Positions 40,878 to 41,217 of a stretch of 64,000 nt of DNA are shown here, piece after piece. This DNA is from Anaerolineae bacterium. Lineage in GTDB: Bacteria; Chloroflexota; Anaerolineae; S140-20. The position numbers and the translations under genes were made by a program. The notes beneath the pieces are model-generated. The model searched no databases. It had not been told where the DNA came from and worked only from the letters and a program-made list of their open reading frames with translations. Each line of letters starts with the position of its first letter. Position 1 is the stretch's first letter. The DNA is taken from the NCBI GenBank assembly GCA_027021705.1, contig JALUTT010000022.1, forward strand, positions 60-64,059, read 5' to 3'.

Positions 40878-41217
40878 GGCGGCGAACAGGAGTAGTAGGC
40901 CATCCCCGCAGCGAGCCGGGAAAGACCAGGTGGAAGCCCGGCAAACGGTGCCCCCGGGGAGCGCCAGAAGGCCGAACTCGCCTGGGAGCCGTGGCTGCGA
41001 ACGGACAACCCCAGTAGTAGCCACCGGGTCGCGCCCGTTACCGCGCTCAGAGTGGATGGACAGCGTGGGGCTGTAGCTCAGCTGGGAGAGCACCACAATG
41101 GCATTGTGGGGGTCAGGGGTTCGAATCCCCTCAGCTCCACCTGATTTTTTGTCCTGTCCATCAAACAGGGTGGTACCGCGGAGTGCCCCTTCGTCCCTGA
41201 TCGGCGAAGGGGTTTTT
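40878..41217 (+). ncRNA. Transcriptional T-box riboswitch, Leu (CUC) specifier
   Basis: Stem I 40878-40990 with AGTA/GAA-CTC specifier loop, CAGCGA bulge and GGTGGAA loop; Stem II 40991-41024; CCGTTA 41035; Stem III; AGGGTGGTACCGCG 41167-41180; terminator 41186-41217. Confidence 0.9.
41067..41139 (+). tRNA. tRNA-Ala(GGC), nested in T-box Stem III
   Basis: GGGGCTG acceptor stem; anticodon arm CCACA-ATGGCAT-TGTGG; T-loop GTTCGAATC; ends ACCT, so CCA is not encoded. Confidence 0.95.

Follow-up and report, generated by a model that had tools for sequence, protein, structure and literature searches.

A complete tRNA-Ala(GGC) gene within Stem III of a predicted leucine T-box leader, and a family of similarly built leuS leaders

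The subject of this report is a leader in a 64,000-nt stretch of DNA (hereafter, the window) from an Anaerolineae bacterium of the Chloroflexota (GTDB lineage S140-20; GenBank assembly GCA_027021705.1, contig JALUTT010000022.1, positions 60 to 64,059 of the forward strand). With a probability of about three in four, this leader is a functional class I transcriptional T-box, a tRNA-sensing riboswitch, which responds to leucine (Leu), hosts in the apical loop of its Stem III a complete and independently functional tRNA-Ala(GGC) gene, and controls an ilvE-ydjM-protease-leuS operon. On comparative grounds, the nested arrangement is one ancient and conserved family of leuS leaders, of which the window carries a single member. 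The evidence includes: (i) the recurrence of the same arrangement among genomes, (ii) an end-to-end alignment of the leader with the T-box model of Rfam, at a score below the curated threshold, (iii) conservation and covariation of both the riboswitch and the tRNA, and (iv) the positions of promoter-like sites, which are consistent with one RNA that spans both.

Distribution of the nested leaders

The GTDB genomes (one per species) were scanned for the T-loop GGTTCRANTCC positioned 20-50 nt before the T-box core GGTGGNACCRCG. The scan gave at least 120 matches, and all family counts given here are among the matches listed. The same nested tRNA-Ala(GGC) arrangement is present in 108 of the 120 matches and, thus, in at least 108 species-level genomes. 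ARAGORN calls a tRNA across the T-loop in 105 of these matches, all of which (105/105) are Ala(GGC), while three more are cut by the edge of the locus. The other 12 matches are chance juxtapositions plus L079, a locus with an edge-cut tRNA. With 108 of 120 independent matches to a generic pattern carrying the same nested tRNA, the arrangement is not attributable to chance. Nested tRNAs of other identity were sought and none is found among the matches listed: a lone Thr match and a lone Leu match adjoin sequence that is not a T-box, and most matches that lack a called tRNA are chance juxtapositions or ordinary terminators, with three belonging to the Ala(GGC) family at the locus edge. In the L079 locus (positions 1-60), from a metagenome-assembled genome (MAG) of the Polyangiaceae, a non-Ala tRNA ends 8 nt before GGGTGGTACCGCG.

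The sensing elements of the family are nearly invariant. CUC occupies the specifier position in all 104 listed loci that have upstream sequence (window included), and resides within GAA-CUC-R in 99 of these; the remaining specifier loops include three close variants (CAACUCG, GAAACUCG and GAAGCUCG) and two that are incomplete. The variable base of the T-box is U (UGGU) in 101 of the 104 loci, which matches an A73 discriminator. leuS is downstream in every listed locus with enough sequence, with 88 loci having leuS directly after the leader or past one small gene, and 11 of about 100 having leuS after ilvE. The gene found between leader and leuS is a GNAT acetyltransferase in Limnocylindria or an AMP-binding enzyme in Desulfotomaculia-like loci. 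Across the family, the regulated gene of the leader as read from gene order is leuS, and ilvE, which only a minority of loci have, is a secondary insertion. The inserted genes are presumably also leucine-controlled, both the GNAT acetyltransferase (L013, L050, L106 and other Limnocylindria loci) and the AMP-binding enzyme, which is acyl-CoA-synthetase-like (L016, L045 and L101).

The carriers listed, as labelled, are about 57 Chloroflexota (including Thermomicrobiales, Limnocylindria, Ktedonobacteria, Anaerolineae, Caldilineae and Thermoflexales) and about 33 Bacillota of the Clostridia (including Syntrophomonadaceae, Peptococcaceae, Thermoanaerobacteraceae, Thermacetogeniaceae, Desulfotomaculia and Gelria). 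Armatimonadota, Ca. Sysuimicrobiota and Coprothermobacterota make up the rest, along with some MAGs that are unclassified or carry odd labels, for about five phyla in all. By this distribution, the nesting is not an oddity of one lineage. The mention of tRNAs that overlap Stem III in Firmicutes, in the initial annotation made from the letters of the window alone, fits these data: overlapping T-box and tRNA features are drawn by Rfam in Clostridia. No paper that describes them was found. Since annotation pipelines draw such overlapping features, the nesting may have been seen in passing. A description of a tRNA gene inside a T-box was not found in the searchable full-text literature (including the TBDB paper and a 2008 in-silico T-box survey), where absence is no proof.

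The nested leaders differ in how readily they are recognized by the RF00230 model of Rfam. Of 18 nested relatives tested, 10 exceed the gathering score (93.7-133 bits) and are mostly AT-richer, while eight (L001, L004, L011, L013, L038, L073, L097 and L119) fall below, as does the window, and are mostly from GC-rich genomes. Thus, standard annotation of the GC-rich nested leaders gives the tRNA alone and misses the T-box. The window is a case in point, as the curated thresholds of Rfam report its tRNA and leave its T-box unreported.

Anatomy of the leader in the window

The RF00230 model (positions 1-219) aligns end to end on 40873-41201 with 72.5 bits, below the gathering score of 93, and an E-value of 1.2e-15 when Rfam is used with E-value reporting. 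The only large departure from this alignment is a 94-nt insertion that is confined to the Stem III loop. The initial annotation had read all parts of a class I T-box in the window, with a Leu specifier and a UGGU that fits A73, and had named RF00230 as a check; the full-length alignment and a direct reading of the sequence agree with it part by part. The specifier loop GAA-CUC-G is at 40974-40980, with the CUC (Leu) codon at 40977-40979. The model also aligns Stem II, with its GAA/AGUAGUA motif, and the F-box CCGUUA (41035-41040); the Stem IIA/B pseudoknot is a predicted region.

Stem III is a helix of 9 bp in which GATGGACAG (41055-41063) pairs with CTGTCCATC (41154-41162), followed by AA. 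The RRRNG (5') and AA (3') flanks of Stem III are given as part of the T-box motif definition in PMC7778990. The minimum-energy fold of 41050-41167 is this 9-bp Stem III around a cloverleaf. Stem III here (contiguous helix, median 6 bp) is neither longer nor stronger than that of ordinary T-boxes.

The antiterminator is formed by the pairs CAGGG/CCCUG and GCGGAG/CUUCGU around the bulge UGGUACC, with UGGU at 41171-41174, and has a folding energy of -11.9 kcal/mol. The UGGU bulge matches an A73 discriminator. The stem of the terminator (41185-41213) has an energy of -19.3 kcal/mol and is unusually stable (z = -4.7). Nucleotides 41189-41199 are common to the terminator and the 3' half of the antiterminator; thus, the two structures are mutually exclusive. 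These sequence features place the window leader among the class I transcriptional T-boxes, with CUC as its Leu specifier and UGGU as its bulge.

The nested tRNA-Ala(GGC)

The tRNA in the Stem III loop is called by ARAGORN as tRNA-Ala(GGC) at 41067-41141 and by RF00005 at 41067-41139, with 64.5 bits compared to a gathering score of 29. Both calls uphold the earlier reading of a complete tRNA that is non-cognate to Leu sensing. CCA is not encoded by the nested tRNA of the window, where A73 is followed by CCT, while CCA is encoded in 84 of the 104 listed loci. A73 itself is found in 104/104 of these loci, the GGC anticodon is kept, and G3:U70 is present in all 60 distinct sequences of the alignment described below. 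G1 is preceded by U in 78 of the 104 loci (75%), compared to 20% T in the nearby background. G3:U70 and A73 form the identity set of alanyl-tRNA synthetase (AlaRS), and U at -1 is the context preferred by bacterial RNase P. Thus, the patterns at G3:U70, A73 and U(-1) point to a working tRNA gene instead of a scaffold or pseudogene, and the nested tRNA looks like a real substrate of RNase P and AlaRS.

Two further features of this region were considered. A hidden Ala specifier, in which a GCC after CUC would pair in cis with the nested GGC anticodon, was rejected, as GCC is present in only 65 of the 104 listed loci, with GTC, ACC, GTT and others at this position in the rest; the triplet belongs to the closing helix of Stem I. 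A run of six T residues (41145-41150) starts 6 nt past the acceptor stem of the nested tRNA and might be a pause signal in the window. As a terminator or a conserved pause, this U6 run was rejected, since it is not kept in GC-rich relatives and is not called by the terminator scan.

Conservation and covariation of the riboswitch and the tRNA

The flanks alone served as anchors for Stem III, with the last RAG[ACT]G taken on the 5' side and, on the 3' side, the AA that precedes the T-box; the pairing was not optimized. With this anchoring, pairs 1-5 of Stem III form in 85-93% of 98 loci, and each position is occupied by several types of pair; pair 4, for example, is AU in 40, CG in 24, GC in 11 and UA in five loci. 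A spliced alignment of 60 distinct sequences was also built, in which the motif plus 6 nt, the tRNA, and 6 nt plus AA are joined and the linkers removed. In this alignment all six counted pairs of Stem III have double changes and 81% of cells are paired, while the four tRNA stems are 99.6-100% paired with double changes at 15 of 21 pairs. Overall, 95.8% of cells are paired compared to 76.8% in shuffled alignments and 39-50% when the partners are slid by 1-3 columns. A comparison of the duplex energies of native and permuted Stem III strands was significant but confounded by related sequences and, thus, was replaced by the motif-anchored pair counts.

The conservation of the tRNA and of the T-box parts shows selection on both. 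Loss of the Stem III pairing among relatives had been named in the initial annotation as an observation that would speak against the nested reading; the pairing is instead conserved with compensatory changes.

Transcription unit and operon

Promoter-like sites were compared in 94 loci with at least 450 nt of upstream sequence. Strong sites (10-12 of 12 matches) occupy a fixed position shortly before Stem I. A tRNA-Ala(CGC) gene precedes the leader in 16 loci, including the window; the promoter-like site of these 16 loci lies 10-20 nt before the tRNA-Ala(CGC), with none found between the tRNA-Ala(CGC) and Stem I. A promoter-like match between Stem I and the nested tRNA is noted in four of the 94 loci, of which two are short leaders misclassified by the cut-off. 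An internal promoter that separates the tRNA from Stem I, which had been raised as a possible objection at the outset, is therefore found neither in the window nor in 90 of 94 relatives. As Stem III requires both of its strands in one RNA, and covaries, a single RNA likely spans the nested tRNA.

The promoter-like site of the window, about 20 nt before tRNA-Ala(CGC), is the sole site upstream of the leader. Scans found neither a promoter-like nor a terminator-like site between tRNA-Ala(CGC) and Stem I of the window, and no further promoter-like site, terminator-like site or T-box from the leader terminator to the end of leuS. For the interval from ilvE to leuS in particular, a second T-box, promoter or terminator was considered and rejected on these scans. 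The ilvE and leuS genes, which had been named from the translations alone, are identified by NCBIfam equivalog models (Table 1). The simplest reading of the sequence is one transcription unit composed of the promoter, tRNA-Ala(CGC), the T-box with tRNA-Ala(GGC), ilvE, two small genes and leuS.

The two small genes are encoded where an open reading frame (ORF), orf201 (42490-43095), had also been listed. orf201 was rejected as a gene, since it has no family matches and the real genes (YdjM and aspartyl-protease-like) are in other frames. In most other ilvE-type relatives from GTDB, the gap between ilvE and leuS is about 50 nt, with wider gaps in L083 and L091; among the ilvE-type relatives listed, a match to orf201 in this spacer is found in the window only. 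Thus, the 1.2-kb segment between ilvE and leuS looks like an insertion specific to the window.

Several neighbouring features of the window are also observed. A tRNA-Arg(CCG) gene (40194-40267, minus strand) is divergent from the Ala-tRNA/T-box unit. A promoter-like site of its own (40304-40276) includes TTGACA, a 17-nt spacer and CAGAAT preceded by TG. Upstream of the tRNA cluster is an ORF of 1658 residues with DUF11-type repeats (TIGR01451) at 33404-38380 on the minus strand. The end of the window (60001-64000) has a GC content of 0.58 compared to about 0.65 elsewhere, with a GC skew down to -0.21.

Table 1. Features of the leader and operon in the window (positions are those of the 64,000-nt stretch).
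Feature	Position	Strand	Basis
Sigma-70-type promoter-like site: TTGACA, 17-nt spacer, TATACT; 11/12 matches	40699..40727	+	promoter scan
tRNA-Ala(CGC), CCA encoded; putative first gene of the transcript	40746..40821	+	ARAGORN, Rfam 64.7 bits
T-box Stem I: GA/K-turn base, AGUAGUA, distal AGCGAG bulge, GGUGGAAG loop	40879..40989	+	RF00230 alignment, sequence
Stem II, S-turn (GCGAAC ... AGUAGUA), Stem IIA/B pseudoknot region, linker	40990..41049	+	RF00230 alignment, sequence
Purine motif GAGUG (RRRNG) at 41050-41054, then Stem III 5' strand GAUGGACAG	41050..41063	+	sequence, folding, covariation
Nested tRNA-Ala(GGC), G1 to A73, G3:U70, U at -1	41067..41139	+	ARAGORN, RF00005
3' linker/trailer CCUGAUUUUUUGUC, six-U run at 41145-41150	41140..41153	+	sequence
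Stem III 3' strand CUGUCCAUC, then conserved AA	41154..41164	+	sequence, folding, covariation
T-box sequence and antiterminator	41166..41199	+	RF00230 alignment, folding
Intrinsic terminator, 11-bp stem and UUUUU	41185..41218	+	terminator scan, folding
ilvE, branched-chain amino acid transaminase; predicted first regulated gene	41433..42368	+	NF005146, 437 bits (equivalog)
YdjM-family gene, between ilvE and leuS	42530..43045	+	
Aspartyl-protease-like (retropepsin-type) gene, between ilvE and leuS	43071..43457	+	
leuS, leucine--tRNA ligase; conserved target of the leader family	43581..46361	+	TIGR00396, 977 bits (equivalog)
First terminator-like hairpin after the leader terminator, just beyond leuS; likely operon end	46423..46452	+	terminator scan

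Other layouts of the tRNA-Ala(GGC)-leuS linkage

The linkage of tRNA-Ala(GGC) to leuS is found in more than one form in a sample drawn by LeuS similarity alone (80 metagenome loci, 50-79% identity). The layouts include: (i) the nested form in six loci (L123, L129, L134, L139, L142 and L150), (ii) a tandem form, with tRNA-Ala(GGC) directly before a complete Leu CUC T-box, in six loci (L127, L128, L131, L133, L136 and L157), (iii) tRNA-Ala(GGC), a terminator and leuS with no T-box in three loci (L143, L148 and L198), (iv) a Leu T-box with no tRNA in four loci (L145, L166, L176 and L178), and (v) neither element in about 43 loci with at least 1 kb of upstream sequence, 18 of which were checked with Rfam. 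Of the 16 leuS T-boxes in this sample, 12 are tied to tRNA-Ala(GGC). One nested locus (L139) has exactly the layout of the window, with tRNA-Ala(CGC), the T-box with nested tRNA-Ala(GGC), ilvE and leuS. The closest relatives by LeuS (76-79% identity) either lack the leader or have loci that end before it, and the loci of the closest ilvE-type relatives (L124 and L130) likewise end before the leader region.

In the tandem loci, tRNA-Ala(GGC) is sometimes preceded by the CGC gene, and Stem III is ordinary or merely extended. As these forms have a normal Leu T-box without the insert, the T-box does not need the insert. The presence of tRNA-Ala(GGC) before leuS in loci with no T-box (L143, L148 and L198) shows in turn that the linkage outlives the riboswitch. 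Within these groups, some loci have features of their own. An extended -10-like TGCTATAAT is found between the tRNA and Stem I of L127 and L128, Stem III is enlarged by an extra hairpin of 20-35 nt in L131, L133 and L136, and the tRNA-Ala(GGC) of the T-box-less loci has its own promoter-like site and terminator-like hairpin, 80-180 nt before leuS.

Proposed mechanism

Based on the promoter positions, transcription would start from the site at 40699-40727 and proceed through tRNA-Ala(CGC), Stem I, Stem II with Stem IIA/B, the 5' strand of Stem III and tRNA-Ala(GGC), with the same transcript continuing into the 3' strand of Stem III, the antiterminator/terminator and the genes. As the nested tRNA is upstream of the terminator, every transcript would yield it, terminated and readthrough products alike. 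The nested tRNA likely folds on its own with the Stem III strands paired around it, such that uncharged tRNA-Leu(GAG) would be sensed as usual.

RNase P is predicted to release the nested tRNA at G1. Since the window lacks an encoded CCA for this tRNA, its 3' cut is presumed to be after A73 by an RNase Z-type enzyme and followed by CCA addition. In most relatives, where CCA is encoded, 3' trimming would instead be exonucleolytic. Excision of the tRNA would divide the leader immediately before the T-box and terminator. With only about 80 nt from the 3' end of the tRNA to the end of the terminator, the Leu decision probably precedes this processing. An attenuated leader that is transcribed constitutively and mostly terminated may be an economical site for a tRNA gene, which would explain why the arrangement persists.

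Alternative explanations

Several points weigh against this reading. The cleavages by RNase P and RNase Z, the timing of cleavage and the dependence on tRNA-Leu are deduced from sequence. The T-box of the window scores 72.5 bits compared to the RF00230 gathering score of 93. The sigma-70 consensus used in the scans may not suit an uncultured host of 65% GC, in which case an internal promoter could go unrecognized. In addition, a tRNA that is purely a passenger leaves three observations unexplained when taken alone, namely the constant Ala(GGC), the constant leuS and the persistence of the arrangement across phyla. A doubtful alternative is that the regulatory device has taken on the nested tRNA as one of its working parts, either by cleavage, in which the cuts would detach Stem I and Stem II, free the bound tRNA-Leu and leave the mRNA with a structured 5' end that sets its stability or resets the switch, or by delay, in which the extra 95 nt or so (with the U-run in the case of the window) would give tRNA-Leu longer to bind before the termination decision. 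The nesting is kept in about five phyla with changes in the genes that separate the leader from leuS, and the link of tRNA-Ala(GGC) to leuS is retained in three different layouts, both of which are consistent with recruitment. A riboswitch cut by RNase P, with stabilization of an mRNA, and a T-box cut by RNase III, with destabilization of one, are also documented in PMC7913692. By contrast, the complete Leu T-box and ordinary Stem III of the tandem relatives argue that the insert is dispensable, the U-run is specific to the window, and no feature of the linkers or Stem III is conserved beyond the needs of a tRNA gene and an ordinary T-box. Excision as an obligatory and selected step of the riboswitch output, which severs the sensor from the expression platform, is rated as unlikely. 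The initial annotation also raised clamping of the two cut halves by the 9-bp helix, or a limit set by cleavage on the time for antitermination; both are speculation.

The other alternatives dispense with either the tRNA, the riboswitch or their union in one transcript. A tRNA-shaped module that was adopted as an extended Stem III and is never matured would fit the location of the insert within a helix, where some loci have only 0-2 nt from Stem III to G1 and, thus, a poor context for RNase P; the tRNAs embedded in GOLLD RNA are similarly discussed as possibly shielded from maturation in PMC12990946. A scaffold, however, needs no invariant GGC, G3:U70 and A73, no encoded CCA (81%) and no U at -1 (75%), and the same isoacceptor is found in every carrier listed, which makes this explanation very improbable. 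That the T-box is a decaying relic, with the terminator of a tRNA-Ala operon derived from it and leuS expressed from elsewhere, is scarcely credible: while the three T-box-less loci (L143, L148 and L198) and the sub-threshold Rfam score of the window speak in its favour, the T-box elements of the window are all intact, the CUC, UGGU, RRRNG/AA flanks and antiterminator are conserved with covariation over the 104 loci listed, and no promoter-like site is found from the leader terminator to leuS. Transcription of the nested tRNA alone from an internal promoter, with two transcription units that overlap only in position, is suggested by weak matches (9-10 of 12) just before the nested tRNA in the Ktedonobacteria loci L006 and L062. 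This arrangement is also highly improbable, as no such site is found in the window or in 90 of 94 relatives, strong sites are consistently upstream of Stem I, and Stem III, which covaries, must span the tRNA in one RNA.

Implications

The nested leaders show that a complete, folded RNA gene can reside at the apical end of a T-box Stem III, with the riboswitch retained through very long periods of evolution. This finding places a constraint on models of T-box architecture and suggests a ready site for engineered tags or aptamers. The family, which is apparently undescribed and found in species-level genomes across several phyla of the Bacillati, would join a tRNA-sensing riboswitch and a different tRNA in one transcript. 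The tandem, nested and T-box-less layouts provide natural controls within the family. Cultured carriers (Desulfotruncus alcoholivorax, Thermosyntropha lipolytica, Desulfofundulus thermosubterraneus, Desulfitispora alkaliphila and Tengunoibacter tsumagoiensis) make it testable whether processing by RNase P and RNase Z feeds into riboswitch output and mRNA stability. If excision were a selected step, it would determine how stable the leuS mRNA is or reset the switch, with tRNA-processing capacity or the supply of tRNA-Ala as a second input into the expression of leucyl-tRNA synthetase. The expression platform of a riboswitch would then hold the gene for another RNA, the maturation of which is coupled to regulation. 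For genome annotation, the consequence is that high-GC nested leaders are missed by standard pipelines.

Comparison with known systems

The nested leaders share with canonical class I T-boxes (RF00230; e.g., the Leu CUC leaders of Bacillus leuS and ilv-leu) the Stem I K-turn, the specifier loop of GAA-codon-purine, the distal platform, the Stem II S-turn, the CCGUUA of Stem IIA/B, the RRRNG/AA-flanked Stem III, the UGGN bulge, the competing antiterminator and terminator, and an aminoacyl-tRNA synthetase gene as target. By contrast, the Rfam consensus has a Stem III loop of about 5 nt, while here a 73-nt tRNA gene and its linkers form a loop insertion of 94 nt. The window leader, like those of the other loci with an upstream tRNA-Ala(CGC), also differs from canonical T-boxes in that it is preceded by a second tRNA gene on what appears to be the same transcript.

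A large, structured segment is tolerated near Stem III of another T-box, the met leader of S. aureus, in which the 150-nt L I-III region is a lineage-specific insertion of stem-loops according to PMC7913692. Insertions of the met type are before Stem III, are lineage-specific and have no independent gene function in the account given there, whereas the insert of the nested leaders is a conserved tRNA gene inside Stem III and common to several phyla. Cleavage of riboswitch leaders also has precedent: as cited in PMC7913692, the thrS T-box of B. subtilis is cleaved just upstream of its terminator (Condon et al. 1996), the pbuE adenine riboswitch is cleaved by RNase P, and the S. aureus met T-box is cleaved by RNase III. 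If the nested tRNA is excised, the leader would be cut at nearly the same relative position as thrS, with RNase P as one cutter. In thrS, pbuE and met, however, cleavage takes place outside any tRNA gene and yields no functional RNA, whereas cleavage of the nested leaders is predicted from the tRNA features.

tRNAs are also known to be co-transcribed with mRNAs, as in the thrU-tyrU-glyT-thrT-tufB operon of E. coli and the tRNA punctuation of mitochondrial transcripts. In GOLLD RNA, tRNAs are embedded in a larger RNA, as described in PMC12990946. Similarly to these systems, the nested tRNA-Ala(GGC) would come from a longer transcript with other functions and be released by RNase P and 3' processing. 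The nested leaders differ from all three in that the host is a predicted riboswitch that senses another tRNA, and that a helix of the sensor encloses the tRNA.

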